Source: a virus. From it: a stretch of 48,307 bases of DNA. A program made the position numbers and the translations under genes. This document shows positions 2,129 to 48,307 of the stretch, piece after piece. Position 1 is the stretch's first letter. Each line of letters begins with the position of its first letter. Location: positions 1 through 48,307 of IMG/VR virus record IMGVR_UViG_3300009506_000099; one strand, written 5' to 3'. The notes beneath the pieces are model-generated. The model saw only the letters and a program-made list of their open reading frames with translations. It was not told the DNA's origin and did not search any database.

Positions 2129-2435
2129 CTGGACTCTGTGGTATGATGATGAAACAGTATTCACATCCTTGGATGGGGAGCCTAATGACTCGCCAAGATG
2201 GGGAGTAGTATGTGTGACTCAGCCAGGAAAGGCGAAGGATGTACTTTGGAACGAGTGGGCTTACATCTACCACGAAGATATGGAAATATGGACACAGCAT
2301 GACCTAGTAGGTTTCATAGATCAGCAGGTACACTTCTCACCAATGATTACCTGTGTACGTATTGGTAGAGATATGCTCACAGGGAGGTTCAAGGAGATCG
2401 TGGAAAGAGCTACGAAAGAGGCTAGAGGTCTCTAA
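2109..2435 (+). CDS. Hypothetical protein (108 aa)
   Basis: ORF packed between tail genes. Its stop overlaps the start of the next gene. Confidence 0.5.
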   Translation: MTSLIPDWTLWYDDETVFTSLDGEPNDSPRWGVVCVTQPGKAKDVLWNEWAYIYHEDMEIWTQHDLVGFIDQQVHFSPMITCVRIGRDMLTGRFKEIVERATKEARGL

Positions 2436-15094: not shown

Positions 15095-15335
15095 TGAACT
15101 AGATCTGGGGAGGCAGATTCATAACAAGGTAGATATATCTCTGCCTTGGGGAGATCTTCTTGACCAGATCGTAGAGGCGGCGAGGAGTGCAATCGCTGAT
15201 GATATGTGGAGATGGTACAACGAGAATAAGAATGTATCTATTCTCAAGATCAAGAAGTGGATTTTCTCCTGGACCTTGAAAGTGAAGGATACAAGGTTCT
15301 TGTTCGAGCTCTTATTTGGGCCGGAAAATGCCTAG
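15081..15335 (+). CDS. Hypothetical protein in the lysis cassette (84 aa)
   Basis: ORF between the holin and endolysin, overlapping both. No transmembrane segment is evident. Confidence 0.4.
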   Translation: MAAINELDLGRQIHNKVDISLPWGDLLDQIVEAARSAIADDMWRWYNENKNVSILKIKKWIFSWTLKVKDTRFLFELLFGPENA

Positions 15336-15801
15336 ATTCTCCTCTATATCCAAGGAGTCTATAGGGACGTGTCATCCCCTTATCAAGATGCTCCTTTACT
15401 CAGCTATCGAGTATTGGGATTTCATTATCCTCTATGGATTCAGGGATAAGGAGAAGCAGGATTATTTCTACGCGGAGGGAGTGTCGAAGGTCAGGTGGCC
15501 TAATTCCAAGCACAATCACCTCTCCACACAAGAGGATGTTGATGCTGGATGGGCAGAAGGTACTGATGAGCCGCTCTCCCTGGCCTTCGACTTCGCTCCG
15601 TGGCACTCAACTGGGAAGCATATTAGATGGAATGAGAAAAGGGAGTTCTATCACATGGCAGGTCTTCTCCTAGGCATGGGAGAGAGGATAGTAACTCCGA
15701 CAGAGTATAAGTGGAGGTATGGGGGAGACTGGGATTCAGACCAGGATCTCGGGGATCAGACTTTCTTGGATCTCGGGCATATTGAACTCGTTGAACGGTG
15801 A
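15316..15801 (+). CDS. Endolysin, peptidase M15 (VanY / L-Ala-D-Glu peptidase-like)
   Basis: NSKHNH ... LAFDFAPW ... DLGHIEL matches the H..D...H zinc-ligand layout of M15 peptidases. It lies next to the holin. Confidence 0.7.
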   Translation: MGRKMPRFSSISKESIGTCHPLIKMLLYSAIEYWDFIILYGFRDKEKQDYFYAEGVSKVRWPNSKHNHLSTQEDVDAGWAEGTDEPLSLAFDFAPWHSTGKHIRWNEKREFYHMAGLLLGMGERIVTPTEYKWRYGGDWDSDQDLGDQTFLDLGHIELVER

Positions 15802-15804
15802 AAC
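15790..15804. promoter_or_regulatory. parS/OB-like site GTTGAAC-G-GTGAAAC
   Basis: It covers the endolysin stop codon and ends 3 nt before the ATG at 15808. Its reverse complement is identical to the site at 44777. Confidence 0.55.
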
Positions 15805-25920: not shown

Positions 25921-27103
25921 TACCTCCCTCATCCTTACGAACGATTGAGCCCATCTGGACTAACATAAGGAGCATCTTACCTAGATCTTGTATATCTCCC
26001 ATTGCATAGAATTCTTTATGCACCTGGACAGCAGTCATTCCTCCTTCTTTCCTTATCCGAAGGAGGATTCTCTCCAAGTTGTTAGCGTGCTCATACTTAC
26101 CAACAGCAGAGAAAGTCTTGCCCATGTCTCTCTCCACAATCTGAAGGATGTCCCATGCAGTCTCGAGATCCACTTTCCTTAGGATAAGATCATCACTCTC
26201 ACTGATAGAGAGGAGCATGGCCACTTTCAGGATATGTATCTTCTTCCGATTATGGAATCCTTCAAGCCTGTAATCATCTGGGATCTTTCCTGCTAGATCC
26301 TCATACATTACGGAGTAAGTTTCTTTAGCTCCTTCCCCCCATGTGAAGTCTCCTTCGATCCTAGAGATATGGTCAAGATCGTTGATGAGGTCTCGCACGA
26401 GGTTATCTGAAGGCTCTCCAGGGAAAGGTTTGAGATATCTTGGCTTTTCTCCGTAAACGAAAATAACTCTTGCAGTAAATCCGTGACCCAAGACATCCGA
26501 TGGAAGTCCTTCCGCAATCCAGCTAGGGGTAGTGCCAGCGAGGATATTGAGCACTGGATTCTCAATAGTATCTCGACCTGATGTTTTCGTTGAGTGTCTC
26601 CACTTGTAGTCGCCATCATAGATATCCGTTAAGAACTGAATCATCTTTATACCACTCGGCTCGATTAAAGAACTTAACTCAGTCGAGTGGAGGGTAATCG
26701 CGCTCTGTCTTCTATTATGCCCAGCCTTAGACATCACCCTTATTAATTCTTCCCGGGTGACTGAGTCCGGGCCAAATAGAATATCATTCACCCCGAGGAG
26801 AAGTTTACGTCCGAGGCGGATCGTCGTACTCTTGGCTACCTTACCAGGTGGACCAACAAGTATGACAAACATATTGGGAAAGAGAACGTATATCCCCTGA
26901 TTGATCCACACATTTCTGCGGACGGCAGAGGCTAATACACTTAGTCCTGTCCAAAGATGGAACTGCTCAGGTGACTCGCTCTCCTTCGTATACTCGTTAT
27001 ATGCAAGCAGCCAATTACTTAGAGTCCTGTCCGTTGAGACTTCTCCATCCGATTGAGAGACACTTTCTCCAGATGGTTGCTTGCCTGAGCCCAGTTTGAC
27101 CAC
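25892..27103 (-). CDS. P-loop NTPase, DUF3987 / VirE / D5-like helicase
   Basis: Walker A VGPPGKVAKST. NWLLAYNEY..PEQFHLWTGLSVLASAV and DIYDG..W are typical of DUF3987-type phage replicative NTPases. GTG start. Confidence 0.6.
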   Translation of the reverse strand: MVKLGSGKQPSGESVSQSDGEVSTDRTLSNWLLAYNEYTKESESPEQFHLWTGLSVLASAVRRNVWINQGIYVLFPNMFVILVGPPGKVAKSTTIRLGRKLLLGVNDILFGPDSVTREELIRVMSKAGHNRRQSAITLHSTELSSLIEPSGIKMIQFLTDIYDGDYKWRHSTKTSGRDTIENPVLNILAGTTPSWIAEGLPSDVLGHGFTARVIFVYGEKPRYLKPFPGEPSDNLVRDLINDLDHISRIEGDFTWGEGAKETYSVMYEDLAGKIPDDYRLEGFHNRKKIHILKVAMLLSISESDDLILRKVDLETAWDILQIVERDMGKTFSAVGKYEHANNLERILLRIRKEGGMTAVQVHKEFYAMGDIQDLGKMLLMLVQMGSIVRKDEGGTIWYRPVIS

Positions 27104-27215
27104 AGAAGTCCCTTATCTCTTCACTAAGTTCTCTAGGGATACGAATGGTATGAGCCACCATGGCTTCCACGTTATACTGCTCTCTCCTTAACTGCTTAAT
27201 AGTTTCGTTGTCCAT
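27015..27215 (-). CDS. Ribbon-helix-helix (CopG/Arc-like) DNA-binding protein
   Basis: 66 aa. HTIRIPRELSEEIRDFCGQTGLRQATIWRKCL fits a strand-helix-helix layout. The ATG lies 3 nt after a parS-like site. It overlaps the helicase ORF by 89 nt. Confidence 0.5.
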   Translation of the reverse strand: MDNETIKQLRREQYNVEAMVAHTIRIPRELSEEIRDFCGQTGLRQATIWRKCLSIGWRSLNGQDSK

Positions 27216-27218
27216 GTT

Positions 27219-27233
27219 GTTTAACCGTGAAAC
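27219..27233. promoter_or_regulatory. parS/OB-like site GTTTAAC-C-GTGAAAC
   Basis: It covers the polymerase stop codon (TFHG*). On the minus strand it ends 3 nt before the ATG of the RHH gene. Confidence 0.55.
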
Positions 27234-29557
27234 GTCTTCATGTTCTTCCAGTCCATACCTACCTTGATCTCAATAGGGATCTCAAGAACTTGAGTATCGA
27301 CTGGCATTTCTCTCACAGCGGCTTCCTGTATAATTTCTACCGTCGCATCGAGATCCTCCTCTCTTACTTGTAGTAGACATCCATCGTGCATATGGGCTAG
27401 GATATGGGCTTCCTCGCCATAGCCAGTTGCCTTATCAACATCAGCAATCGCTAGGGTAGTGAGATCACTCACTGAACTTTGAGGCTCGAAAGCAATACAA
27501 TCTCTATGTTCATGGGTGAATCTGTATATACGTCCGAGGATATTCCTCCGCCTACCCCAAGCGTTCTCCATATACCCATTGGAGAGGGCAGAGTTATATA
27601 CTATATCCCACCATGCTGGTAGTCCAGGATGTAGGTCTATGTAGGCTTGGTGAAGCTCTTTGGCCTCAGCCGCATTGATGCCAACTCCAGTATCCAAGTA
27701 GTTCTCATTAACTGTTCTCTTAAGGCCTAGCCATGATAGATAGTAATTCATAGCGTGGCGGCAGGTCTTGGCTAGGTATCTCTCCTCAACACTATCCTTC
27801 CCCTTCTCTAGAATCATTTCCATCAGCTCTTCATATGAGTAGCCGAATGGAAGCATCGAGGCTAGCTTTGTATGAATGTCAATACCTTCTGCCATATCAT
27901 CGAGAAGATCCCAGTCCCTCGTCTTGACTGCAACGTATCGAGCCTCGGCTTGTTCGTAGTCCCATCCAACAAAGACATATCCTGGGTCTGGGATACAGAT
28001 TTCTCTGGCATCATTAGGTACAGTTTGAAGCGGTAGACCTGGCCACCAGGGCTTATTAGCGGAGAACCTGCCGTTTCGAGTTCCATTAAGTCGCCAGTTA
28101 GTTCTAATACGTCCATCCCTATCAACGACTTTTTCTTTGGTGAGGTATCGGGATACAATATTACGGTTCTCCCTTGCCCGTATGATCTTCGTGAGGACAG
28201 TTTTCGCATCGCCTTCCTTTTCCGAAGCGGCTATGTCCATCAGATAGTCCTTGGCCGTAGTTCGCTTCTTGTATCTTTTCCCAAATCCAAGGAGATCGAA
28301 CACAATCTCTGCTGTCTGTTGGGAGGAACGGGGGTTAAAGGAGCGACCTACAATATCTTCAATCTCACTTTCAATCTCATCTGCTTTAACTGTATGCTTT
28401 ATATATAGTTCTTCGAGCTTATCTGTATCACACCTTATCCCCATCTTCGATGAGCGTATGAAGGTATCCATCACGCTCATCGTTATATCATATCCTCGTC
28501 GGCCACCAGCGATATTGAATTCAGTTGCCTCTATCTCCCCCATCACTTCGTAAGTAACAGCGGCATCCTTACCGGCATACTCCTGACCACGCTCATCTTG
28601 TCCTACGAACTCAAGCTCTTCCTTATAGTATGGTTCTCTCGTGAGGACAGATGACATATGGTTAAGCTTGTTGGACTTCAGGTCTCCCCAACAAGCCCAC
28701 CATGCTATCATCGTATCATGTTTGATATTAGATACCTTGATCCCAATACGATCGAAAGCAACTGTATCGAACAGAGCGTTCTGCATTACCTTTGGTACAT
28801 CAGAGGATAGAATCTCCTTGTATGCACGGTAGGCTTGCATTGAGTTGGGAGGTATTACTACCGCAAAATCAGGAGAATCGCTGAAACTAATATAAGCCAG
28901 AGAATTAGGATTATACCACTCAGAGTCAACAGAGAGCAGATCAGCCTTCTTATATCGTATGATGGCATCTTCTATCTCCTCCGGAGTTGGGTCAGTTACT
29001 ATTGTTCTTTGAGGGAGGATTATCTCAGGACTCTTACTCTCCTCCTTGACTCGCTTCCAATCCCATTCGAGGAAAGGAATCAGGTGATATTGGCGAGAGT
29101 GGAGGATGTAAGCTGGGTGGATGATAGGGATTACCTTCAATCCTTTCACCAGGGTAGACTCAAGGATTGAGCCTCGCCAGTTAAGGATTCCCCAATTCTG
29201 GGTGAGCGCCCAGAGAGCATAGTTCCCCAGGGCAACGACTACGTTGGGTTGAACTTCTTTAATCTCCTCAAGGACTTCAAGGATTCCTTCCATGTATTCA
29301 GAGGAAGGAGTGTTATCTTTAAGGAAGAAGAACTTATGTTTATCCTCACCACCAGGAGGGTAGTACTTGTATGTGTTAGAGATATAGATATCCCCTCGAT
29401 CGAGACCGACAGCAGAGAGGAGTTTATCCAGTTCTTTCCCAGAAGTTCCAACGAAAGGAGTGCGGGCCCAGACCTCTTCCTTCCCAGGACTCTCACCTAG
29501 AACAAAGATGTCCGCGTCCTCCGGCCCGATGGCAGGGACTCGGATGTCACCCAGCAT
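27221..29557 (-). CDS. UDG-like (family 4) domain fused to family A DNA polymerase with 3'-5' exonuclease
   Basis: UDG motifs: GESPGKEE..PFVGTSG and IIHPAYIL. Exo I DSE, Exo II NALFD, Exo III YAGKD. Pol motif A DYEQAEARY, motif B RYLAKTCRHAMNY, GRRR, motif C HMHDG. Confidence 0.9.
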   Translation of the reverse strand: MLGDIRVPAIGPEDADIFVLGESPGKEEVWARTPFVGTSGKELDKLLSAVGLDRGDIYISNTYKYYPPGGEDKHKFFFLKDNTPSSEYMEGILEVLEEIKEVQPNVVVALGNYALWALTQNWGILNWRGSILESTLVKGLKVIPIIHPAYILHSRQYHLIPFLEWDWKRVKEESKSPEIILPQRTIVTDPTPEEIEDAIIRYKKADLLSVDSEWYNPNSLAYISFSDSPDFAVVIPPNSMQAYRAYKEILSSDVPKVMQNALFDTVAFDRIGIKVSNIKHDTMIAWWACWGDLKSNKLNHMSSVLTREPYYKEELEFVGQDERGQEYAGKDAAVTYEVMGEIEATEFNIAGGRRGYDITMSVMDTFIRSSKMGIRCDTDKLEELYIKHTVKADEIESEIEDIVGRSFNPRSSQQTAEIVFDLLGFGKRYKKRTTAKDYLMDIAASEKEGDAKTVLTKIIRARENRNIVSRYLTKEKVVDRDGRIRTNWRLNGTRNGRFSANKPWWPGLPLQTVPNDAREICIPDPGYVFVGWDYEQAEARYVAVKTRDWDLLDDMAEGIDIHTKLASMLPFGYSYEELMEMILEKGKDSVEERYLAKTCRHAMNYYLSWLGLKRTVNENYLDTGVGINAAEAKELHQAYIDLHPGLPAWWDIVYNSALSNGYMENAWGRRRNILGRIYRFTHEHRDCIAFEPQSSVSDLTTLAIADVDKATGYGEEAHILAHMHDGCLLQVREEDLDATVEIIQEAAVREMPVDTQVLEIPIEIKVGMDWKNMKTFHG

Positions 29558-29817
29558 CAGTTGACTACCTTCGCTACAGGTATCTCTTTCTCTCTTACGA
29601 ACATCACGAGGTAGAGGTGGATAATCCCATGCCTGGTCTTGTCCCCCTTCGCTGTGAGAACCTGGCCAGGAGCATTAGAGACCTCTATATTACCTGACCA
29701 GATTAGATGAGAGAGATTAAACCCATCAGTTTCATTCTCCTTTATACACATAGCCAGCTCATGAGGACCTTTGACGATGAAGAACTTCCTCTCAATCTGT
29801 ACTGTTTTCTCTCTCAT
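29557..29817 (-). CDS. Hypothetical protein (86 aa)
   Basis: TGATG junction with the polymerase start. Confidence 0.5.
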   Translation of the reverse strand: MREKTVQIERKFFIVKGPHELAMCIKENETDGFNLSHLIWSGNIEVSNAPGQVLTAKGDKTRHGIIHLYLVMFVREKEIPVAKVVN

Positions 29818-29992
29818 TATCAGTCTCTCTCCTTACTACGACTAGAAGTTCATATCCTAAGCAGACCATCATGGCTGCTCCGTCATTCATCTTCTTAATA
29901 TTATCACAGTCTAAGTCATTAAGGTAGACTGTTACCTTATTCTTTATCGTCCCTTTTGGATGGTCCAGTTTAACTTGCATAAACATGCTCAC
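29792..29992 (-). CDS. Hypothetical small protein (66 aa or shorter)
   Basis: ORF overlaps both neighbours. Internal Met starts are possible. Confidence 0.3.
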   Translation of the reverse strand: MSMFMQVKLDHPKGTIKNKVTVYLNDLDCDNIKKMNDGAAMMVCLGYELLVVVRRETDNERENSTD

Positions 29993-31304
29993 TTAGGATA
30001 AGATTACCAAGCTCCGCTCTTTCTTTATCAAGCTCGTATCCCACATACTCACACTGAAGATCAAGTGCCCCCAAGCCTGTTGATCCAACACCTGCAAAGG
30101 GATCGAGGATTCTTCCACCACCAAGGGAGATCATAGAGATTACTTCCTTACAGAGATCCCTTGGCATCTGCATAGCGAAGTCTCTCTCACTCGGATTCAG
30201 GGTGTCATAGATAAATATGTCCTGCTTTCCTTGTTTGAGAAGAACAGCGTCTCCCTTCGAAGCAAAGACCATAGCCTCATAGGAGACAATCATGCCTTTC
30301 CTTGGATCGCCTATTATCCCTTGTGTCTTGTTGGGCTTCACCCAGATAGGAGGAACGAGGGTTACATAAGAGAACCCTACATCCTCGAGCCAGAAGGCTA
30401 GGCCCATTGAGTCATATAGAAGCTTCTGATCAATCGAGGTCCTTCCTTCTAGCTTCTTATACAACTCTCTTTGCATATTGTTGTATGTTATCTTCCTCAC
30501 ATCGAACCAGGCTACCAGCCAACTGTCATCCTTGAGGACTCTATAAGCTTCTCGAATAACGTCTTGAACCAGTCCATTAATGTACCCCTCTTCATCCTCA
30601 TATACTTTCTTTCCTCCCTTCAATTCAAAGTCTACACCGAATGGGAAGTTAGTGACGACAGCATCGAAGCTCTCATCTTCCTCTTCCTTGATAAGATCTC
30701 TGGCATCCCCAGCCTTGATAATAGCAGGGATGGAAGGGGCCTTACCTTTCTTCTTCCTTTCTATCTCCTTCTTCCGCTTCGATATCTTCTTATCAGTATC
30801 CCTTTTACTGAGAGCACCACGGAGAGTCTTCTCTTGTTTCAGGGATGGATCTTCTTTCATTGCCTTCGAGAGATCCACGCTTTTCGATACAGTCGCCTTG
30901 CTCTTTCCTACCATTGCCGCAGTCTTTGCCATGCTCCATTCTGGATCCTCCTCCTGTTTGAGGTCATGGATCTCAGCGATGGCGGCAGCCTCTTCATACC
31001 ACTCAAGCTGTTTCCGTCTGATGTTCTCCTCGAGTTCTATTTCCTTCTGTTCGATAACAGATAGCTCCTCTTTGAACTTGGCATCAATGTTCTTCCAACC
31101 AAGTTTGAGGGCTCCCATTATCCGAGTGAAGCCAGCGACAAGTTCGATCTCTCCATCTTCATTCCTGTTAACTACGATGGTGGAGAGCTGGCCGAACTTC
31201 TTGAGAGACTCAGCCATTGTATTAATGTCTTCGTCTGTCAACTCTTTCCTCTGTCGAGGCTTAATCTTTATGTCCTTGATACTTACATTAGGCATCCTCT
31301 TCAC
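29970..31304 (-). CDS. ParB/Srx N-domain + ParB-type HTH fused to an N6/N4 DNA methyltransferase
   Basis: ParB box: IKIKPRQRKEL..FGQLSTIVV..ELVAGFTRIMGA. HTH: SMAKTAAMVGKSKATVSKSV. Basic linker: KKISKRKKEIERKKKGK. MTase motif IV-like VVTNFPFG lies upstream of motif I DPFAGVGSTG (beta-type order). Confidence 0.85.
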   Translation of the reverse strand: MKRMPNVSIKDIKIKPRQRKELTDEDINTMAESLKKFGQLSTIVVNRNEDGEIELVAGFTRIMGALKLGWKNIDAKFKEELSVIEQKEIELEENIRRKQLEWYEEAAAIAEIHDLKQEEDPEWSMAKTAAMVGKSKATVSKSVDLSKAMKEDPSLKQEKTLRGALSKRDTDKKISKRKKEIERKKKGKAPSIPAIIKAGDARDLIKEEEDESFDAVVTNFPFGVDFELKGGKKVYEDEEGYINGLVQDVIREAYRVLKDDSWLVAWFDVRKITYNNMQRELYKKLEGRTSIDQKLLYDSMGLAFWLEDVGFSYVTLVPPIWVKPNKTQGIIGDPRKGMIVSYEAMVFASKGDAVLLKQGKQDIFIYDTLNPSERDFAMQMPRDLCKEVISMISLGGGRILDPFAGVGSTGLGALDLQCEYVGYELDKERAELGNLILSEHVYAS

Positions 31305-31402
31305 TCATCCTCTCATCAGGATTGGCGAGGGGATCGTCTCAACTATCACCATACGCAAGGCAGGGGGTCAGTCCTTGGTGGTTGAGGAGATCCTCCCCGC
31401 CG

Positions 31403-31963
31403 TTATCGGATAACTGCTTCTATCTCCCTCTCCTCAATCAAATAGTGGAGGACCTCTCGACCCTCATCATCCTCGAGGGAGAACATCCTCGTGTTAACAT
31501 ACCTTAGCTTCTGAACTGAGCTTACTTGGAGATTGGCAGGGCCAAAGGCGATTACATCACTCGCCAGGAATTTGTAGGCTACATCTGTTTGTATATCGAG
31601 GAGCTGAATCCACCTATCATTCTCAGTGGGACTCTTCTCATACTCCTTCATTTGATCATGGAAGATAGGTTCAACCTCGATATCAACGAAGATCTCCACA
31701 TCCTCAAGCCCATCCCTAAGGATGACGGAGAAGAAATCGGCATAGGTATTCGGTGCGTCGAACATCTCGGTTGAGAAGACAGCGATATCTCCTTCCCTAA
31801 TATCCTCCCGTACATCTGGACCTATATTAACTACTCTCCCAATAAACGGATATCGTTCTTGCGCCTCAGGGGGGATAGCTAGTCCTCCAGGTGTCTCCTC
31901 TATGAAGAGGGCCTCAGCGAGGACGAGGCGTTTGGATGGTTTCAATCTGTCCCTTCTTAACAT
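31403..31963 (-). CDS. GroES/Cpn10-like domain protein with a C-terminal extension of about 100 aa
   Basis: LKPSKRLVLAE...TPGGLAIPPEAQE..FIGRVVNIGPDV..IREGDIAVFS parallels GroES (I-P-L-x-DRVLV, GGI-x-P, G-x-V-x-A-x-G, GD-x-V). Confidence 0.55.
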   Translation of the reverse strand: MLRRDRLKPSKRLVLAEALFIEETPGGLAIPPEAQERYPFIGRVVNIGPDVREDIREGDIAVFSTEMFDAPNTYADFFSVILRDGLEDVEIFVDIEVEPIFHDQMKEYEKSPTENDRWIQLLDIQTDVAYKFLASDVIAFGPANLQVSSVQKLRYVNTRMFSLEDDEGREVLHYLIEEREIEAVIR

Positions 31964-32053
31964 TGGTTCTCCAAGATGAGAGTCGAGGGTCTTGTATCTA
32001 TCCTTTCCCTCAACAAGTCGGGCGTCGCGATCTTCGGATAGACCCGAGAGTGA

Positions 32054-32473
32054 TTACTTCTTCTTGCCCTTCTTGGCAGGGGCCTCAGAAGGAACGACCC
32101 GCTTGATCTGGGAACGCATATCCCCAGAACCCTCGGGGTACTCCTCCTGCTTGAGGATGATACCGCACTCCTCACCAATCAGATCATCGGTATCAATATC
32201 GAGTGCATCCAGATCATCGACATCGAAGTCACTACCAGTGACTGTATTGATGAAGGCGATGGTGATACCAGCTCCCTTCCCTTCGAGGGGCAGGTTGTTG
32301 TAAAACTTCCGACCCTCGAACTCACCCTCAGAGATCTCGAGGATCGCTGGGATGTACTTAGACTTCGGACCCTGAGTCACATCCCCGAAGCCCTGGATAC
32401 GAGCAGGGTATGTTCCATCAGGGATCGGCTTAAGGCTCTCAGCCTCGGTCAGGTTCAGCGTTAGTGAAGGCAT
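32054..32473 (-). CDS. DUF669-type ssDNA-binding protein (putative)
   Basis: 139 aa. LKPIPDGTYPARI..SKYIPAILEISEGEFEGRKFY and an acidic then basic tail. It sits beside the Sak4-like ATPase, as in known phage recombination modules. Confidence 0.55.
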   Translation of the reverse strand: MPSLTLNLTEAESLKPIPDGTYPARIQGFGDVTQGPKSKYIPAILEISEGEFEGRKFYNNLPLEGKGAGITIAFINTVTGSDFDVDDLDALDIDTDDLIGEECGIILKQEEYPEGSGDMRSQIKRVVPSEAPAKKGKKK

Positions 32474-32482
32474 TTCTTACTC

Positions 32483-32791
32483 CTAGAATTCGCCAGTGTC
32501 TTCGCCCGTGAGTAGCTTCTTGAACCACTCAGGGATTCTCTCCACGTTGTCAACAGCCCAGTCGATATAAGTTGGATCTTCCTTCTTGACCTGTTCCCAG
32601 GTCTTACCTCTATACTTACCGAAACGTATAATGGATTTCCAACCCAGCTCCCAATCACTAGGGTAGGAAGGCTTATCTTTCTTGACCTTCTTCTCCCCTC
32701 TGATTGCATCGACTAGGAATTCGAGGAAGTCATCGTCAATCTCAAGAGCAGTTTCCTCTCCATCAATAGCGATGAGCCTTCCGATCTGCAT
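32483..32791 (-). CDS. DUF3820-like small protein
   Basis: FGKYRGKTWEQVKKEDPTYIDWAV matches the FGKYKG..DP.Y..W signature common in phage replication modules. Confidence 0.5.
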   Translation of the reverse strand: MQIGRLIAIDGEETALEIDDDFLEFLVDAIRGEKKVKKDKPSYPSDWELGWKSIIRFGKYRGKTWEQVKKEDPTYIDWAVDNVERIPEWFKKLLTGEDTGEF

Positions 32792-35524: not shown

Positions 35525-35553
35525 AATATAACAGAATATATCCCCGGTGTCAA
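35525..35553 (-). promoter_or_regulatory. Sigma70-type promoter: TTGACA, 17-nt spacer, TGtTATATT
   Basis: The minus strand reads TTGACAccggggatatattctgtTATATT, with a consensus -35 and an extended -10. Confidence 0.7.
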
Positions 35554-35575
35554 TAGAGAGGATTGCTGTTACCTT

Positions 35576-35590
35576 GTTTCACGGTGAAAC
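35576..35590. promoter_or_regulatory. parS/OB-like palindrome, perfect: GTTTCAC-G-GTGAAAC
   Basis: Its last base is the first base of the sulfotransferase-like gene's stop codon, and it lies 22 nt from the -35 of the promoter at 35525..35553. Confidence 0.6.
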
Positions 35591-36135
35591 TAGTAGGAGT
35601 ATCCAAGCTCCTTAATCTCCTCATGGAAGTAATAGCTTATCCATTGTCTTGATCCTTCAGAGTGTATCGACCTATAATCTTTTCCCTTCCTTTTCCTCCC
35701 TCCAACATGAGCAAGAGAAACATCCGGCAACTCGAACAGAGAGAGAAGAGTGTTGAGATCATCCTCGAGATTCTCAAACCTAATGCAGAGAGTCTCGGGA
35801 ACCTCTTTCCTGAAGTACCATAGTCGCTGAGGTACACAGTAGCTTCGTCTCCTTCTTATCTGTCTAAGAACCCATTGCTCCACCCATACATCAGTTAGGG
35901 AATTGTCTGTGTGATTGTTGGTCTTACTCATATACCAGGAGGCAAATGCATCCCAGTGGTTACGGACTACACAGAAGTAGCGGAGTCCTTCGAAGAGTTT
36001 ATCATACTTGATAGGCCCATAGTGATGACCTCTTAGATTACGGAAACCAATCTCCTTAAGTGCATCACTCACTGATCGTGAGGCAGTATGAGGATGAGCG
36101 AGATAAGCTAGGTTTACTCCTCGGTGGACGTACAT
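35590..36135 (-). CDS. Sulfotransferase-like protein with a degenerate PAPS loop (paralog of the next gene)
   Basis: YLAHPHTASRSV aligns with FLAHPKTGTQTV of the paralog (Lys to His, Gly to Ala). VVRNHWDAFASWY resembles the RNPxDxxxS 3'-PB motif. Confidence 0.5.
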   Translation of the reverse strand: MYVHRGVNLAYLAHPHTASRSVSDALKEIGFRNLRGHHYGPIKYDKLFEGLRYFCVVRNHWDAFASWYMSKTNNHTDNSLTDVWVEQWVLRQIRRRRSYCVPQRLWYFRKEVPETLCIRFENLEDDLNTLLSLFELPDVSLAHVGGRKRKGKDYRSIHSEGSRQWISYYFHEEIKELGYSY

Positions 36136-38953: not shown

Positions 38954-39337
38954 TCACCGTTCTTCTCCATCTTCATCCTCCTTAAGGATGCCCGAGTACT
39001 GCTCCCTGAGCCTCTTCCACCTATAGATCATAACATCACAGATCTCGAGCCACTCAACAGGAGTGAACTCTGGGTTATCGAAGTCTATATCTTGAGTCTT
39101 CTCGATGGCTATGGTATCGGGAAGATCTCCATCATATCCATACCCTGTGTTGAGATCAGCATTGATAGAGATGTGTCCTCCATAGGCATAGAATGCTCGA
39201 CCTGTATCCAGAAGATGATAGTACCTTCCAAATCCAGAAGGACGAAACTCGTTGGGGTCTCCAGCATCATTGAGGGCCTTCATCATATCATCCATCTTCA
39301 TACTCCTCTTCATCGAAAAGGTAGGATGGGAGAGCAC
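38954..39337 (-). CDS. Hypothetical protein (127 aa, or 113 aa from Met15 at 39295)
   Basis: A GAGGAG SD lies 7 nt before the ATG at 39295, which would reduce the overlap with the upstream gene to 8 nt. Confidence 0.5.
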   Translation of the reverse strand: MLSHPTFSMKRSMKMDDMMKALNDAGDPNEFRPSGFGRYYHLLDTGRAFYAYGGHISINADLNTGYGYDGDLPDTIAIEKTQDIDFDNPEFTPVEWLEICDVMIYRWKRLREQYSGILKEDEDGEER

Positions 39338-39737
39338 TCAGATAAATAGGGAACTCCTCTCCTGGATGACAGGAGCAGGTCAGATATTTCCCCGTGAAAC
39401 AAGGGTCCTTATGCTCTCTCATGAATTGAGCTAGATAATAATGACCTCGCTTGATTGAGAAGGATATGATACCCTCTTCATAATCAAGGAGGGGAGCTAT
39501 GATATCTCTTGGGTCTATGGGTGGAGTGAAGCGATAGAGATCAGAGAGTACCTGCTTAGGATCAAGACCTATATTAGATGATCGGGCGAGGTACTCAAAG
39601 ATAGAGGGAGAGACCTTGAATGTTACCTTCTCGAATCCTCCATAGACCCTCCTCTCCTGGAGGGAAGGATAGGTCTCTACCCTTCCCGTACCAGGGAGGA
39701 AGAATGAGAAAGGGCGGGATGAGTTTATTCGTCCCAC
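39288..39737 (-). CDS. Hypothetical protein (149 aa)
   Basis: Long ORF in the early arm. It contains the degenerate parS-like site at 39386. Confidence 0.5.
   Translation of the reverse strand: MGRINSSRPFSFFLPGTGRVETYPSLQERRVYGGFEKVTFKVSPSIFEYLARSSNIGLDPKQVLSDLYRFTPPIDPRDIIAPLLDYEEGIISFSIKRGHYYLAQFMREHKDPCFTGKYLTCSCHPGEEFPIYLSALPSYLFDEEEYEDG
39386..39400. promoter_or_regulatory. Degenerate parS-like site ATTTCCC-C-GTGAAAC
   Basis: The right half is perfect. The left half resembles a Noc-type ATTTCCC half-site. It lies inside a CDS. Confidence 0.35.
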
Positions 39738-41878: not shown

Positions 41879-41907
41879 AATATAACAGAATTAATGCCGA
41901 GAGTCAA
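41879..41907 (-). promoter_or_regulatory. Sigma70-type promoter: TTGACT, 17-nt spacer, TGtTATATT
   Basis: The minus strand reads TTGACTctcggcattaattctgtTATATT. It lies just downstream of the terminator at 41941..41986. Confidence 0.7.
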
Positions 41908-41932
41908 GAGAGTGGGGGGATTGGCGCTTGGA

Positions 41933-41986
41933 TATAAGAAAGGGGGATCAGATCCAGGAAAGGTGGAAAGTGGATCTGATCCCCCT
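41933..41986 (-). terminator. Rho-independent terminator after early paralog A
   Basis: A perfect 16-bp stem (AGGGGGATCAGATCCA / TGGATCTGATCCCCCT) with a 14-nt loop, followed on the minus strand by TTCTTAT. Confidence 0.65.
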
Positions 41987-41987
41987 C

Positions 41988-42002
41988 GTTTAACCGTGAA
42001 AC
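41988..42002. promoter_or_regulatory. parS/OB-like site GTTTAAC-C-GTGAAAC
   Basis: It lies between the stop of early paralog A and its terminator hairpin. The sequence is identical to the site at 27219. Confidence 0.55.
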
Positions 42003-42022
42003 AAGTTGGTTAAACGCTTCTC

Positions 42023-42385
42023 TTACCCTTCGATGGCGAAGCCAGCCGCCTTGAGGACTTCGAGCTGCTCGGCGGTGAACTTGCCCTTCTTCTGCATCTC
42101 CTTCGTGACAGGCTTGGCTCTCCTGCCGCCTCCACCACGACCAGACTTGTACTGGTAGGTGTCGACGTAGGATTGGACCGCATCCTCACCATCATCGAGA
42201 TATCCCCGGGCTCCAGCCTGCAGGGAGACACGGAGGGCCTTGAGTGCGAGGGTGTTGATGTCCTCGTCTGGATTCGAGACGATCTCATTCCATCTCTCAT
42301 CCTCGAGGTTCTCCGGCTCGTTGAACGTGACCTCTACTGAAGGTCCGCCTCGACGGGAGACAGTGAAGGTGGCTGCTTTCGACAT
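42023..42385 (-). CDS. Early protein, paralog A (120 aa)
   Basis: It has its own promoter (42443..42471) and terminator (41941..41986). It shares ATFTV, F..PE..EDE.W, DP..D...LA, Y...YKYG and FTA.Q with 44106..44447. Confidence 0.6.
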   Translation of the reverse strand: MSKAATFTVSRRGGPSVEVTFNEPENLEDERWNEIVSNPDEDINTLALKALRVSLQAGARGYLDDGEDAVQSYVDTYQYKSGRGGGGRRAKPVTKEMQKKGKFTAEQLEVLKAAGFAIEG

Positions 42386-42442: not shown

Positions 42443-42471
42443 ATAATAACAGATGCTAACCCCATTGTCAA
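42443..42471 (-). promoter_or_regulatory. Sigma70-type promoter: TTGACA, 17-nt spacer, TGtTATTAT
   Basis: The minus strand reads TTGACAatggggttagcatctgtTATTAT. It drives early paralog A. Confidence 0.7.
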
Positions 42472-43004
42472 GAGTCTTGCTTCCTTAACAGGGCATTGAA
42501 TCCTGTTGTTTCCTCCTCCTCTATACGCTCGAAGGCATAGGTTAGTTTCTCTCCTTCCTCTCGACGGGTAGAGAGGTGCATGATCCAACCGAGAGAGGAG
42601 ACTTGTTCGGAGAAAAGGGTTTCATCGAAGGAGGAGGAGGGATAGAACTCAACGGGGACGAGGTTGCCCTTGTACTCGGAGAGGAAGACGAGTACCCATG
42701 CCTCTGTATTCCGAGGGAGGGATAGAGAAGCACTCGCTTTCCCTTTAGGTTGGATAGAGATGTGAGATCCTGTAGGGGAGGAGTGGATCTTCACATTTGA
42801 TCGGATAGAAGAGTATCTCCCTTGCTCGATGTCCGAGTACATCTGAGCTGCTTTCAGAATCCTGTTAAGTGAGTAAGCGATGGATGATATCTCATCAGGT
42901 GTTGAGGGAATGATTGTATCCTTCCCTTGCTTGAGGTTAGAGAGGATATCGTCGAGGAGATCGAGGTTCTGGAGAACGAGTTGACGATTGAGTGAGTAGC
43001 CCAT
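42468..43004 (-). CDS. Hypothetical protein (178 aa)
   Basis: Long ORF in the early arm. Confidence 0.55.
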   Translation of the reverse strand: MGYSLNRQLVLQNLDLLDDILSNLKQGKDTIIPSTPDEISSIAYSLNRILKAAQMYSDIEQGRYSSIRSNVKIHSSPTGSHISIQPKGKASASLSLPRNTEAWVLVFLSEYKGNLVPVEFYPSSSFDETLFSEQVSSLGWIMHLSTRREEGEKLTYAFERIEEEETTGFNALLRKQDS

Positions 43005-43391: not shown

Positions 43392-43454
43392 GTGAGAGGA
43401 CAATAACAAACAATAACATCATTAACTATTTTCCCTGAACGCGATTTGACAAAG

Positions 43455-43493
43455 CCTCTTCTTCCTTCCTCTTCTTCCTCTCTTCTCTTCTTC
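43455..43493. repeat. 39-nt pure polypyrimidine (C/T) tract
   Basis: cctcttcttccttcctcttcttcctctcttctcttcttc contains no purines. Confidence 0.9.
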
Positions 43494-43509
43494 AAGAATT
43501 ATATATAAG

Positions 43510-43530
43510 AAAAAAAAAAAAAAAAAAAAA
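43510..43530. repeat. A21 homopolymer
   Basis: 21 consecutive A residues, preceded by aattatatataag. Confidence 0.9.
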
Positions 43531-43639
43531 CAAGTATAGAAGCCTAACTGCTTGTCCCCAACTATGATTGTCAAATCGCGTTTCGAAGTTTTAGTTAATG
43601 ATGATGTTGTTGGTTGTTGTTGAGGGGGATATATAGAAG

Positions 43640-43715
43640 GAGACCTATATTTGATTCCTCTTCTTATCAAAGGAGGGGAGGAGAACGAGACATAGAGAGA
43701 CCTATATTTGATTCC
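43640..43715. repeat. Two copies of GAGACCTATATTTGATTCC, 57 bp apart
   Basis: Exact 19-mers at 43640..43658 and 43697..43715, with similar T-rich flanks ending in GGAGG. Confidence 0.85.
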
Positions 43716-44598: not shown

Positions 44599-44762
44599 GA
44601 CACCACATATGGGACAAGTTGTCCATGCCATGTGGGACCGAACAGATACCGAAAGGCCTTGATTCAACCCCGGGGGGTCCCCCCAAGGCGACGCCACCAC
44701 CAGAATAGCTCTCCGAGAATTTCTAGAATTTTGAAAAGTTATCCCTCTTGTTTAGAATAAGG

Positions 44763-44790
44763 ATTATCCCGAAGATGTTTCACCGTTCAA
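44763..44790 (-). promoter_or_regulatory. Candidate leftward promoter: TTGAAC, 16-nt spacer, GATAAT
   Basis: The minus strand reads TTGAACggtgaaacatcttcggGATAAT. The -35 and spacer lie inside the parS-like site. It implies a leader of about 300 nt. Confidence 0.4.
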
Positions 44791-44791
44791 C
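44777..44791. promoter_or_regulatory. parS/OB-like site GTTTCAC-C-GTTCAAC overlapping a leftward promoter
   Basis: It lies in the divergent control region. On the minus strand it supplies the TTGAAC -35 hexamer. Confidence 0.55.
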
Positions 44792-44976: not shown

Positions 44977-45498
44977 ATGAGTCGAGATCTCTTACCCACG
45001 CTCTCTCCAGAGAAGAGCTATCAACCTGAGAAGTGGACATCTCTTCACAGATATATGGTTCTCCTTGAGATAGCTGGGAAGAAACCTAAAGAGATCGCAG
45101 AGATCGTAGATATGTCGATCTCTAGGGTTTCAGTTATCCTCGGTGACCGCCGAGCAGAGATCGAACGGCTCTCCCTTGCAGAAAAACTCTCCGATCAGAT
45201 TACAGATATCCATACCAAGCTTCAACTCTATGCTCACGAGGCTCTCGAAACTGTTATTGATGAGATGAGAGCCCCGGAGAATAAGAGTGAACTTAGAGTG
45301 AAGGTAGGTTTCGGGATCCTCGATAGGGCAGGCTTTACCCCTGTTCAGAAGCAGGTAGTAGCTCATGCAGAGATTCCTGTAGAGATTGCTGAGAGAATGG
45401 AGATTGTCGCCTCAGAACTCAAGGAGAATAGGCCAGTTTATGAGAAGGTAAAGCCGAAGATTGACGAAGCTGAGTTCGAGGTTATGGAAGATGACTGA
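44977..45498 (+). CDS. HTH protein, small terminase subunit candidate
   Basis: 173 aa directly upstream of, and overlapping, the large terminase gene. KKPKEIAEIVDMSISRVSVILGD resembles a sigma-region-4/LuxR-type HTH. Confidence 0.5.
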   Translation: MSRDLLPTLSPEKSYQPEKWTSLHRYMVLLEIAGKKPKEIAEIVDMSISRVSVILGDRRAEIERLSLAEKLSDQITDIHTKLQLYAHEALETVIDEMRAPENKSELRVKVGFGILDRAGFTPVQKQVVAHAEIPVEIAERMEIVASELKENRPVYEKVKPKIDEAEFEVMEDD

Positions 45499-47200
45499 TC
45501 TCGACCTTGGTATGCTCGTCGAGGAGGTCTTTGAGCCCTCAGAGATTGAGAATCTACCATCTCTAAAGGGTTTGAAGAAGGCTCACGGCGATCTTACTGA
45601 GTCTCTTAGGCAGGGAATCCGCTCTCAGGCCCTCAAAAGTACCTATTTCCTAGCAAAAGTAGTCCTTGGATACACGAAACTCAACATCCGAGTCCACCTT
45701 CCGATGTGTGAGTTCATAGATCAGACAGAAGCCTACACTCGTAGGATGGCTCTGATGCCTAGGACTCACTTCAAGACGACTATTTGGACCATAGCTCACT
45801 CAATTAAGCTCGTCTGTAACAATCCGAATATAAGAATCCTCATGATAGCGGACACTGGGACTAACGCCAGCCGCTTTATGCAGGAAATCCAGCAGCACTT
45901 CGAGTTCAATGAAGTATTTCGATGGGTTTTCCAGGAGATTATCCCAGATAACTTCACAAAAACGCGTTGGAGCCAATATGAGATGGTCGTTAAGAGGTCT
46001 CTCATTGCCCGTGAGCCGACGATCGACGCTATTGGCGCACTGGGAGGCTCAGAATCTAGGCACTACGATTGGATCAAGGCGGATGACCTCGTTACTGAGA
46101 AGTGTATTCGCTCGGATGTGGAGATGGATAAGGTAATCCATTGGTCAGGGGGCCTCGAGAGCCTTCTCATCAATCAAAAAGGGGATCATATTGACTTTGT
46201 GGGGTCAAGAAAGAAGAAGGGAGATCTGTACGAGCACCAGGAGAAGATGTATAGCCTAGGGATGGAGAAAGTCGACATCGGACCCCATGCTTATGCGATA
46301 GGAGAGATGGCCGTCTTCACCCGTTCAGCGATTGAAGAAGGAGAAGTTATATTTCCTGAGCAGATCTCCCTTCGTTTCCTCATTCGTCTCCGTAAGACTG
46401 ATCCTCAACGCTACCACGCTCAGTATGCTAACTCCCCCAAAGGTACAGGTCTCAATACTTTCGATGTAAGGGATCTACGTTACTATACCTTTGATGGAGC
46501 TGGGAATATAATCTGTGTCCACAATAAAGATGTACTCCTCGAGGTATCACCATGGAGCCTTGACCGTATAGTTCTCTTCGATCCCTCGGTTGCCGAGAAG
46601 CAGGCTAACTCTCAACAGGCGATCATTGTAGTTGCTAAAGGCTCAGGGCCTTTTCGTATAGTGCTCGAGACTCACATTGGTCACTTTCTTCCAGATGAGG
46701 CCATTAAGCTACTTTTCGATATGGATAAGAAGTGGCATCCGTCAGTCGTCTCTATTGAGAAGAGAGGATTTCAGGGTTGGGTTAAGTATGGTCTCTCGGA
46801 GATTGCAGACCTTAAGGGAATCCCTTATCCTCCTATAGTCGAGTGGCCCCTAGAGGGAGCCTCGAACTCTCAGTGGAGTAAGGTCGAGCACATCAGAGCT
46901 ATGCAACCTATGATTAGGGCCAATTACCTTTGGGTACATGAGACTCAAGTGGATCTTATTGATCTCGTTGAATTCTATCCAAATGTGAGGTGGGATGATG
47001 GACTTGATGCTCTAGCCCAGGCGATGGACTACTGGCCTATGATGATGGATGAGCAAGAGGTTCAAGCTAAGAAGAGAGCTGAGGACGAGTTCCTCATGAA
47101 GAGTTTCCTCGGCTATTCTCCTCCTGAGGATAGCTGGGATGAGAGGGAGTTCCTCCGCTCATTCGATTATACAGGTTATAATCAGATATATGAAGCATAG
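45491..47200 (+). CDS. terL: Terminase large subunit
   Basis: MPRTHFKTT is Walker A-like, as in Terminase_6. DWIKADDL is Walker B-like. IVLFDPSVAEK opens an RNaseH-like nuclease domain. The track start is TTG 45461; ATG 45491 gives an ATGACTGA overlap with the upstream stop. Confidence 0.85.
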   Translation: MTDLDLGMLVEEVFEPSEIENLPSLKGLKKAHGDLTESLRQGIRSQALKSTYFLAKVVLGYTKLNIRVHLPMCEFIDQTEAYTRRMALMPRTHFKTTIWTIAHSIKLVCNNPNIRILMIADTGTNASRFMQEIQQHFEFNEVFRWVFQEIIPDNFTKTRWSQYEMVVKRSLIAREPTIDAIGALGGSESRHYDWIKADDLVTEKCIRSDVEMDKVIHWSGGLESLLINQKGDHIDFVGSRKKKGDLYEHQEKMYSLGMEKVDIGPHAYAIGEMAVFTRSAIEEGEVIFPEQISLRFLIRLRKTDPQRYHAQYANSPKGTGLNTFDVRDLRYYTFDGAGNIICVHNKDVLLEVSPWSLDRIVLFDPSVAEKQANSQQAIIVVAKGSGPFRIVLETHIGHFLPDEAIKLLFDMDKKWHPSVVSIEKRGFQGWVKYGLSEIADLKGIPYPPIVEWPLEGASNSQWSKVEHIRAMQPMIRANYLWVHETQVDLIDLVEFYPNVRWDDGLDALAQAMDYWPMMMDEQEVQAKKRAEDEFLMKSFLGYSPPEDSWDEREFLRSFDYTGYNQIYEA

Positions 47201-47202
47201 AT

Positions 47203-47217
47203 GTTTTACGGTGAAAC
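47203..47217. promoter_or_regulatory. parS/OB-like site GTTTTAC-G-GTGAAAC
   Basis: It starts 3 nt after the terL stop codon, upstream of the small basic gene. Confidence 0.55.
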
Positions 47218-47695: not shown

Positions 47696-48304
47696 ATGTA
47701 CGAAGAGTTTGATCCTAGAGTTCCGCCTGGCGTGGACTCAATGGAGATGCTCCATCAGATGGCGAAGGACAATAGAGGTAAAGGTCCTTTCCGTCTGAGA
47801 GGGGCATTTCAGTTCGATCTGTATAGGCATGGATATCACATTGATAGGTGGTATCAGCCTAATATCGTTACTCAAGAAGGCCTAGAGTATGCTCTAGGTG
47901 TTGCTCTTATCAGTACCACTCAGATCACTGCTTGGTATATCCTCTTGAAGGATAATACCAATGATCCAGTTGATGGTACTGAGACATACGCCACACCTCT
48001 GTTCGTTGAAATCGCTGATTATGATGAGACGATCAGAGAAGCTTGGACTGGTGGTGCTATCTCTGGTACCACAACGAAGAGTGTGTCGAACTCTGGGACT
48101 CCTGCCGAGTTCACGATTAGCACGACTGTAACGATCTATGGTGCTGGACTTGTTGGTGGTGGGACTGCGCCATCGACCAAGAGTGATACCTCTGGAGGTG
48201 GTACTCTCCTTTGTGTATCGAACTTCGCATCATCGAAGCCTCTCGTGGATAACGATACGCTTCAGGTGACCTACACCAACACCACTCAGGATGATGGTGC
48301 TTAA
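47696..48304 (+). CDS. Hypothetical structural protein (202 aa)
   Basis: AAGGAGGAAAGG RBS upstream. Its 3' end is duplicated at 1..141 because of the terminal overlap. Confidence 0.6.
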   Translation: MYEEFDPRVPPGVDSMEMLHQMAKDNRGKGPFRLRGAFQFDLYRHGYHIDRWYQPNIVTQEGLEYALGVALISTTQITAWYILLKDNTNDPVDGTETYATPLFVEIADYDETIREAWTGGAISGTTTKSVSNSGTPAEFTISTTVTIYGAGLVGGGTAPSTKSDTSGGGTLLCVSNFASSKPLVDNDTLQVTYTNTTQDDGA

Positions 48305-48307
48305 TCA
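48164..48307. repeat. Terminal overlap, copy B (identical to 1..144)
   Basis: Same 144-nt string as the window start. It contains the 3' end and stop codon of CDS 47696..48304. Confidence 0.9.

Follow-up and report, generated by a model that had tools for sequence, protein, structure and literature searches.

Which protein reads a family of short palindromes dispersed over the genome of an uncultured phage, and what would that protein do once bound to them? We addressed this question in IMG/VR record IMGVR_UViG_3300009506_000099, analyzed over its whole stretch of 48,307 nucleotides (here called the window), where a minus-strand gene at positions 29970 to 31304 encodes a ParB-type N-terminal domain, a helix-turn-helix (HTH), and a DNA methyltransferase within one polypeptide. 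An earlier note on this DNA had put forward this fusion as the candidate reader of the palindromes and offered three hypotheses for its role: (a) a methyltransferase nucleated on phage-specific sites, (b) a KorB-like regulator with a tethered or inactivated methyltransferase, and (c) a genome organizer or partitioner. Our analysis backs the proposed reader: the module is predicted to read, most likely, eight parS-like palindromes of its own genome, as judged from the identity of their half-site with that of parS, from the covariation of recognition helix and motif, and from a reverse search leading from sites to proteins. Of the three hypotheses the first is favored: we predict, with moderate confidence, that the phage chromosome carries centromere-like addresses at which an active methyltransferase is anchored through the HTH.

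The palindromes described in the earlier note proved to be real. A search of the window for GTTTCACSGTGAAAC with up to three mismatches returned eight copies against 0.46 expected, and none of 100 shuffles reached eight. The consensus of the dispersed sites, GTTTCAC-S-GTGAAAC, is a 15-bp odd palindrome of 7+1+7 geometry, and the motif reaches about 21 bp (CTYGTTTCACSGTGAAACRAG), with CTTGTTTCACCGTGAAACAAG as the 21-bp form of the window site. The canonical full parS is given in the ParB literature as TGTTTCACGTGAAACA, and its half-site is numbered G1TTTCAC7 (PMC7383237). Each arm of the window site is identical to this half-site, GTTTCAC, with one extra central base pair between the arms. Canonical 14/16-bp parS without the central base is not enriched in the window (two weak matches versus 0.94 expected). 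Perfect copies were found at 6807 to 6821 (GTTTCACCGTGAAAC), inside a 692-amino-acid open reading frame (ORF) at 5893 to 7971, and at 35576 to 35590 (GTTTCACGGTGAAAC), where the site shares its last base with the stop of ORF 35590-36135. With one mismatch, GTTTAACCGTGAAAC occurs both at 27219 to 27233 and at 41988 to 42002. The first of these lies at the junction between the DNA polymerase A (PolA) gene, which carries a uracil-DNA-glycosylase (UDG) domain, and a gene for a ribbon-helix-helix (RHH)-like protein, 4 bp upstream of the RHH start (27215), a position that is syntenic in relatives; the second lies 8 bp after the stop of ORF 42010-42300. The remaining one-mismatch copy, GTTTTACGGTGAAAC at 47203 to 47217, is 3 bp after the stop of a 579-amino-acid ORF (45461 to 47200) that is, by position, the putative large terminase. 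Copies with two mismatches are GTTGAACGGTGAAAC at 15790 to 15804, which overlaps the stop of ORF 15316-15801 and ends 4 bp before ORF 15808; ATTTCCCCGTGAAAC at 39386 to 39400, the weakest copy, inside the mechanically called ORF 39288-39737; and GTTTCACCGTTCAAC at 44777 to 44791, in the intergenic stretch from which the minus-strand early module and the plus-strand packaging module diverge. Gene junctions account for six of the eight positions.

Such positions could also be those of RNA-level elements, that is, terminators or stabilizing hairpins unrelated to the protein, since five of the eight sites are within about 10 bp of a stop codon and some are well able to fold (the copy at 6807, for instance, at -10.1 kcal/mol). 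The hairpin or terminator reading was nonetheless rejected on the folding energies, which spread from -0.4 to -10.1 kcal/mol, on mismatches that are uncompensated, and on the absence of a U-tract after the sites. In addition, three sites form no hairpin, and the copies agree in sequence and not merely in pairing, with fixed arms around a varying central base. The palindromes look like protein-binding sites rather than terminators, and we give the RNA reading hardly any weight.

To what extent is the fusion built as a sequence-specific DNA-binding protein? The ORF and all motifs previously quoted from it were verified, at residues 54 to 65 (ELVAGFTRIMGA), 124 to 143 (SMAKTAAMVGKSKATVSKSV), 218 to 223 (TNFPFG), and 401 to 410 (DPFAGVGSTG). 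Read from the GTG at 31304, the protein has 444 residues; since an identical database protein (P0001) and the homologues begin three codons downstream at an ATG (MPNV...), a start at 31295 is more likely, with a predicted gene span of 29970 to 31295 and 441 residues. The three-module architecture is upheld by Pfam, by NCBIfam TIGR00180, and by Foldseek. In the hidden Markov model search that the earlier note had proposed, both Pfam domains exceeded their curated cutoffs: ParB_N (PF02195; E value of 2e-8, 34.6 bits against 26.3) for the ParB/Srx N-terminal domain (residues 5 to 95, positions 31020 to 31292, minus strand as for all features of the protein), and, C-terminal to it in the same polypeptide, N6_N4_Mtase (PF01555; residues 214 to 432, E value of 3e-17, 63.7 bits against 26.7). 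Within the N-domain are box I, PRQRK (31245 to 31259), and box II, ELVAGFTRIMGA (31110 to 31145); box III, ELEENIRR, is at 31014 to 31037. A ParB/Noc-type HTH domain follows at about residues 100 to 160 (30825 to 31007), as assigned by TIGR00180, an alignment with Noc, and Foldseek, and its recognition helix GKSKATVSKSVDLSKA (30861 to 30908) aligns with GKGQSTIANKLRLLKL of Noc. TIGR00180 (parB_part, ParB/RepB/Spo0J) covers residues 7 to 147 at 60.0 bits, just over the cutoff of 58.45, and the closest PDB sequence matches are Noc and Spo0J over residues 7 to 183. Compared alone with PDB sequences, the HTH region gave a marginal match (E value of 0.27), which becomes significant only together with the N-domain or at the fold level.

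The AlphaFold2 model of the fusion (mean predicted local distance difference test score of 84.5, with block means of 84 to 88 for residues 101 to 160) places its first ~160 residues on the Caulobacter ParB-parS complex 6t1f with a root mean square deviation of 2.5 Å over 144 columns, and its N-terminal part also matches Noc-NBS (7nfu) and KorB (8qa9) in Foldseek searches. The HTH region, on whose modeling the earlier note had staked its proposal, does model as a ParB DNA-binding domain. It is joined by a Lys/Arg-rich linker (residues 161 to 194, 30723 to 30824; 14 of 34 residues are Lys or Arg), helical over residues 161 to 188 in the model, to a beta-class N6_N4 DNA methyltransferase domain (residues 195 to 444, 29973 to 30722) that contains motif IV, TNFPFG (30636 to 30653), an invariant KPNK (30318 to 30341), and motif I, DPFAGVGSTG (30075 to 30104). 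This domain superposes on TTHA0409, CcrM, M.BceJIV, N4CMT, M1.HpyAVI, PvuII, MboIIA, and RsrI (Foldseek E values of 1e-12 to 3e-8, the first four being best at about 1e-12); the matches, none of which is to a close characterized homologue, are 14 to 21% identical (21% for the best PDB match) and too distant for transfer of target specificity. The ParB C-terminal dimerization domain is not present, residues 195 to 444 being the methyltransferase.

Evidence connecting this module to the palindromes came from the protein and from related phages. The DNA-contacting triad G170-K171-S172 of ParB/Noc is retained as G133-K134-S135, and Lys136 occupies the position of the parS-specific R173. Across the 17 loci of relatives, we counted 27 odd palindromes of the form GTT....N....AAC against 3.7 expected, and the sites lie mostly at gene junctions in these loci as in the window. 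At least five further sequence classes of 15-bp odd palindrome occur in related phages, and every class is accompanied by a distinct recognition helix in the HTH. In class A, a helix xSK[A/T/S].VS goes with GTTT[C/A]AC (four genomes: the window, L081, L089, and L092); in class B, EALGT[V/I]SQS goes with GTTCATC (three genomes: L082, L093, and L094); and in class C, xS[V/L/R]G goes with GTTCAAW (five genomes: L083, L085, L086, L087, and L091). Locus L088 (35% identity) holds four copies of GTGCAAW-N-WTTGCAC, and L009 (28% identity, with a canonical GERR) holds four of GTTCATT-N-AATGAAC. When the HTH was masked, class A proteins fell into three subclades of the tree, and P0029 (class A) was sister to the P0010/P0013 group (class B); the motif therefore tracks the helix, not the overall phylogeny. 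The relationship was also examined in the reverse direction, in IMG/VR stretches recovered by exact motif search with Desulfofustis-type or window-type sites. A ParB-HTH-methyltransferase protein, relative of the fusion of Desulfofustis phage LS06-2018-MD01, was found in 3 of 19 stretches with at least two sites and in none of 108 with a single site. The complete genome of that phage (L106, OP947158.1; 30% identity) contains nine copies of the 23-bp CTATGTCCCAA-N-TTGGGACATAG, at 249, 2251, 7688, 15474, 23059, 29970, 37113, 41281, and 42977; they are evenly spread, and each coincides with an annotated gene boundary or is no more than about 20 bp away from one. The record does not annotate the palindromes and labels the fusion only "ParB-like partition protein."

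Several points weigh against this assignment, or against the activities that we attribute to the fusion. The relatives were gathered through the protein itself, so that co-occurrence is partly by construction and only the covariation and the reverse search carry information; the covariation in turn rests on few evolutionary transitions and on partial loci. No clear recurrent palindrome was detected in L001, L084, L090, L095, or Microcystis phage Mel-JY34. Half-site position 1 (G), which is read by R173 in ParB, is identical in all classes, leaving the residue-to-base mapping of the covariation unexplained. The protein has lost two residues of GERR, the Glu and the first Arg, and has Phe for the first Pro of motif IV; nucleotide handling or catalysis could suffer from either change. 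Moreover, an unrelated stretch (L118, IMGVR_UViG_3300012005_000014) contains six copies of the window motif, as tGTTTCACSGTGAAACa at 2713, 6450, 8745, 9646, 9683, and 10910, with no fusion in the 15 kb examined of its 42.7-kb contig; it carries amidoligase, glutamine amidotransferase, and terminase genes. Either a fusion gene lies in the remaining 28 kb, or another protein uses the same "parS+1" site. As for the covariation, mapping it onto the specificity residues of Jalal 2020 was tried and succeeded only in part: the residue at the 173 position varies between classes and G1 does not. Separately, dense clusters of GTCCCAA-N-TTGGGAC were seen in three other IMG/VR stretches, with 10 copies within about 3 to 6 kb in L169, 5 within 2.2 kb in L157, and 6 within 3.3 kb in L205. 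No ParB-methyltransferase match was obtained within the stretches examined, and the clusters are more centromere- or iteron-like than the dispersed pattern.

The motif copies in L118 also bear on an alternative in which the fusion is an orphan anti-restriction methyltransferase with a short, site-independent target, its ParB module giving only nonspecific DNA affinity or nucleotide regulation, and the palindromes are read by another protein (a host ParB, a phage protein, or the RHH protein). A 2025 survey of the ParB-CTPase fold places N6_N4 methyltransferases among its most frequent fusion partners in phages and prophages, with a function worded only as "perhaps anti-defense" (PMC12704722), and the ParB-methylase BCE_0392 was reported to show only nonspecific DNA nicking (PMC5512222). 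The conserved RHH gene, too, begins right beside one site. Against these points stand the motif class, which tracks the recognition helix of the fusion, and the expectation that a host ParB would prefer a 16-bp site without the central base, none of which, beyond the weak matches given above, lies in the window. We consider this alternative improbable. The RHH-like protein (66 amino acids, …HTIRIPRELSEEIRDF…; 27015 to 27215, minus strand), encoded by the conserved gene between PolA and primase, was itself tried as the class-specific reader and rejected. A profile search found none in the complete Desulfofustis phage genome with its nine sites, nor in L082, L085, L088, and L092, which all have sites; the protein is present in L084, L090, and L095, where sites were not found; and its putatively DNA-facing Thr and Arg are constant between classes A and C.

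Is the fused methyltransferase likely to be active? The whole architecture is common to about 200 homologues, and residue conservation was followed in a family alignment of 38 sequences with 35 to 72% identity to the window's protein. The earlier note had singled out NFPF as unusual. The motif does depart from the (D/N/S)-P-P-(Y/F/W) pattern, and its N, second P, F, and G are invariant. Within the family, however, it reads N-[F/L/P/A/C]-P-F, with N-[F/L]-P-F in the window's clade and canonical NPPF in the deepest members (P0085, P0095, P0097, P0108, P0111, P0115, and P0120), and the distant Desulfofustis phage protein shows a parallel D-F-P-Y; the window form is thus derived from NPPF rather than an isolated oddity. 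Likewise, motif IV does precede motif I as described, which is the normal order of beta-class enzymes. Invariant across the alignment are N219, P221, F222, G223, K323-P324-K326, F403, and G405, and the S-adenosylmethionine-binding motif I, FxGxG, is present as DPFAGVGSTG with F403, G405, and G410 invariant. Inactivation of the methyltransferase, which had been entertained under the KorB-like hypothesis, appears unlikely because the flanks of motif IV, KPNK, and motif I (DPFAGxG) are kept, and the enzyme is probably an NPPF-derived, N6-adenine type. Several beta-class methyltransferases are dimeric, and CcrM requires an extra DNA-binding domain. The window protein has the same fold and the same IV...I order as CcrM, M.BceJIV, TTHA0409, M1.HpyAVI, M.RsrI, M.MboIIA, and M.PvuII; it differs from them in its N-F-P-F and in an accessory DNA-binding module that is of ParB type and predicted to be sequence specific.

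The other feature remarked on earlier, the absence of the arginine patch of cytidine triphosphate (CTP)-dependent ParB clamps, was borne out in part. Box II reads G58-F-T-R61-I-M in the window, not GERRxR(A), so that the Glu and first Arg are missing; G58 and R61 are invariant in the family, and boxes I and III are kept. Across the 38 sequences, box II reads G-[F/G/R/Y]-x-R, with GGRR in the most divergent members, and more distant IMG/VR fusions have GHRR, GGRR, or GERR. No variation was seen at Q18 and R19 of box I or at E90, E93, and N94 of box III, and conservation of R97 is at least 90%. On the alignment, the unusual box II and motif IV are both lineage traits. The nucleotide pocket has decayed at the Glu and at the first Arg of GERR, two positions in all, yet is clearly still under selection.

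Chromosomal ParB/Spo0J and Noc, which act as CTP-dependent clamps at parS and NBS, are the closest sequence and structural relatives of residues 1 to 160, and their half-site GTTTCAC, G-K-S triad, and box III ENxxR are all kept in the window system. Unlike them, the window protein has a methyltransferase in place of the C-terminal dimerization domain, its GERRxR is reduced to G-F-T-R, no ParA was found with it, and its sites contain one more base pair at the center and lie scattered over the genome, not grouped at an origin. With box II altered, the C-terminal domain replaced, and ParA not found, the fusion is not a canonical ParB clamp. We propose instead that two copies of the protein, one per half-site, would bind each palindrome through the HTH, so that a methyltransferase capable of catalysis would be tethered at addresses that the phage chromosome provides. 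Methylation after replication would then be concentrated on phage DNA, resulting in self-marking or anti-restriction, and the same binding events, at operon junctions, may also modulate transcription. Because the nucleotide-pocket residues are conserved and the methyltransferase replaces the ParB C-terminal dimerization domain, a nucleoside triphosphate (NTP)-dependent step may in addition release the enzyme from the site to act on flanking DNA. According to the ParB-CTPase survey, nucleotide specificity is not predictable from sequence or AlphaFold3, and 17 of 28 ParB-fold proteins bound no NTP (PMC12704722).

A bolder version of this scheme, which we offer tentatively and think rather doubtful, is an NTP-gated sliding methyltransferase clamp that would load at about eight evenly spaced parS-like addresses and methylate the phage chromosome processively. 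The ParB N-gate would close, and a dimeric methyltransferase, in the place of the ParB C-terminal domain, would provide the ring's second closure, so that the closed enzyme could diffuse along the phage chromosome while methylating it. A promiscuous or short-target methyltransferase would in this way be confined to phage DNA, with self and nonself set by the address label, and the address code, as helix and half-site evolved together, would have split into five or more specificity classes. Spacing of the sites is somewhat more regular than expected by chance in the window (minimum-gap P value of 0.027, maximum-gap P value of 0.10) and in the Desulfofustis phage (0.034 and 0.006, respectively); this fits a coverage function and is weak evidence, counted here for the site-addressed methyltransferase in general. 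Once tethered, the enzyme may spread along the DNA, methylate only locally, or chiefly regulate transcription in the manner of KorB. A related arrangement is known from another phage ParB, which activates thymine dioxygenases on double-stranded DNA (PMC13229309). Like the fusion as we read it, this 5mYOX-associated ParB-fold protein enables a post-replicative DNA-modifying enzyme on double-stranded DNA; it differs in being a separate protein without a clear DNA-binding domain, in keeping its C-terminal dimerization domain, and in having no known cognate sites.

Could the palindromes serve mainly in transcription control? KorB of plasmid RK2, a CTP clamp and global repressor, has about a dozen operators dispersed over a similar-sized replicon at varying distances from promoters. 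By analogy, the ParB-HTH module might bind the palindromes at operon boundaries to control the operon of its own gene and the RHH-primase genes, with the methyltransferase an independent passenger or an epigenetic co-regulator. The geometry invites this comparison, as the KorB operator TTTTAGC-G-GCTAAAA is likewise 7+1+7 (PMC11790492) and the window model matches KorB 8qa9. Promoter-like elements lie near some sites. A 37-nt repeat occurs in three copies (35525 to 35561, 41879 to 41915, and 42443 to 42479), each containing a promoter-like site on the minus strand that comes close to consensus (TTGACA-17-TATATT or TATTAT) and has the TG of an extended -10; these are probably early or middle promoters of leftward genes. 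The palindrome at 35576 is 23 bp upstream of the -35 hexamer of the strong minus-strand site at 35553 to 35525, which heads the replication operon, and the palindrome at 41988 is about 80 bp upstream of the promoter-like site at 41907 to 41879. The latter palindrome adjoins a perfect hairpin with a 13-bp stem (GGGGATCAGATCC...GGATCTGATCCCC; 41943 to 41985), which may be a terminator between two leftward operons. The site at 44777 lies in the divergent early/late control region, close to a strong promoter-like element (44731 to 44758). In each of the seven loci with both features, the RHH start codon is at most 16 bp downstream of the PolA-junction palindrome, which suggests that binding there affects expression of the RHH and primase genes.

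The promoter association of the sites is nevertheless partial. Three or four of the eight are near sigma-70-like matches and the rest are not, a count that assumes a host with promoters of the sigma-70 type. The third strong promoter repeat (42443 to 42479) has no site nearby, the syntenic site is downstream, not upstream, of Pam3_gp32 in L089 and L092, and several sites inside or between structural genes lack a promoter-like signal. The invariant catalytic motifs, moreover, indicate a methyltransferase under selection, and the protein differs from KorB in lacking the C-terminal dimerization domain and in carrying a fused enzyme. No KorA or TrbA partner was identified in the window, although no systematic search for a KorA-like partner was made. 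Taken as the main function, KorB-like regulation seems to us unlikely.

Partition or genome organization in a plasmid-like prophage state would also be in keeping with a ParB-type N-domain and HTH and with dispersed parS-like sites. However, PHROG scans of 20 proteins encoded in the window's replication and early regions revealed no ParA, integrase, or repressor, nor did Pfam calls for the neighboring genes of 12 related loci. In addition, the protein has neither a ParA-interaction motif nor the C-terminal dimerization domain, the sites are dispersed and not clustered, and no family member occurs among 185,579 GTDB species genomes. Given the missing ParA, integrase, and repressor and the absence of the family from GTDB, the partitioner of the earlier note is unlikely, and we would assign it very little probability. 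Equally slight, in our view, is the chance that the protein is a site-specific nickase or nuclease whose ParB/Srx domain cuts or nicks the palindromes or nearby DNA to start replication or to serve packaging, the sites being protected or marked by methylation. This idea draws on the nicking by BCE_0392 and on the location of the gene in the replication module; that activity was nonspecific, however, no sign of a nuclease active site is seen in the protein, and its N-domain is closest to the DNA-clamp ParB/Noc proteins.

We return to the site-addressed methyltransferase and its place among known proteins. By its domain content, the fusion belongs to the known class of ParB::N6_N4 methyltransferase fusions: it matches PHROG 67 (E value of 2.6e-27) and PHROG 498 over its whole length, and it has the same domain pair (PF02195 and PF01555), domain order, and phage context as the members of these groups and BCE_0392 of Bacillus cereus. 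The fusion as such is not novel (PMC12704722). For the known class, no cognate DNA site is given in PMC12704722 or PMC5512222, whereas the window genome has matching dispersed palindromes; the window protein differs further in its derived GFTR and NFPF and in a ParB/Noc-type HTH unseen by Pfam. Lying between the two Pfam domains, this HTH escapes surveys based on domain calls because Pfam leaves the 120 to 170 residues of the interdomain stretch blank, as in all seven fusions checked. As far as our literature search goes, no such fusion had been paired before with dispersed 7+1+7 parS-like sites that co-evolve with it. Residues 1 to 195 found 1,093 relatives at E values of 1e-10 or lower among 1.84 billion cluster representatives; about 80% of the best 150 of these are 400 to 500 residues long and matched at the N terminus, so the ParB-HTH module occurs mainly in fusion-sized proteins. 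In further searches, blastn of positions 29000 to 32500 gave no match to GenBank phages, a protein-mode scan of IMG/VR gave no close relative and a profile-mode scan gave one close and several distant relatives, and a metagenome scan added only three further family members; with none in GTDB, these last two scans offered no hint of a host or a prophage.

The window corresponds to a complete phage genome of about 48.16 kb, with an exact 144-bp direct repeat at 1 to 144 and 48164 to 48307 that represents either terminal redundancy or a circular assembly overlap. Its phage origin is borne out by the terminal repeat and by genes for a small terminase, PolA, a primase, SSB, and Sak4. The fusion gene sits in a replication and recombination module comprising a primase/helicase, the UDG-fused PolA, a GroES-like protein, SSB, a Sak4-like annealing protein, and a PDDEXK exonuclease; it is conserved in a clade of uncultured phages of about 42 to 50 kb, and the gene order extends to two deposited phages, Desulfofustis phage LS06-2018-MD01 and the cultured Microcystis phage Mel-JY34. 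PolA (27221 to 29557, minus strand) has an N-terminal UDG-like domain (GESPGKEE...), and Pfam calls both UDG and DNA_pol_A in the orthologue of every related locus. The gene directly upstream of the fusion (31403 to 31963, minus strand) encodes a protein with a weakly GroES/Cpn10-like N terminus (PHROG 3188, E value of 7e-4), and the syntenic gene in L088 likewise has a weak Cpn10 match. Elsewhere, a plus-strand ORF of 995 amino acids (2435 to 5422) contains about 20 imperfect repeats with a 60-nt period and the core GATGGTATCAAGTGGGGAGAT, translated as D-G-I-K-W-G-D, and is likely to encode a repetitive tail-fiber or beta-helix protein; one further copy of this type of motif lies at 526 to 574, in a 316-amino-acid ORF (444 to 1394). 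In the early region, a 29-nt inverted repeat (ACAATAACAAACAATAACATCATTAACTA; 43400 to 43428 and 43592 to 43620) has arms that are 86% complementary, lie 163 nt apart, and overlap both ends of a small ORF (43422 to 43670).

The fusion family offers a prediction of its cognate DNA site, which exists naturally in several specificity classes with a recognition-helix variant for each; this makes the function of a widespread class of phage ParB-methyltransferase fusions directly testable. If the prediction is true, these phages would direct a DNA-modifying enzyme to their own chromosome via a centromere-like address, a new means of telling phage DNA from that of the host, as well as a natural template on which tools for site-nucleated methylation could be based. 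The ParB logic of loading at a site and acting on flanking DNA would then have been put to use again, with an enzyme in place of segregation or repression.

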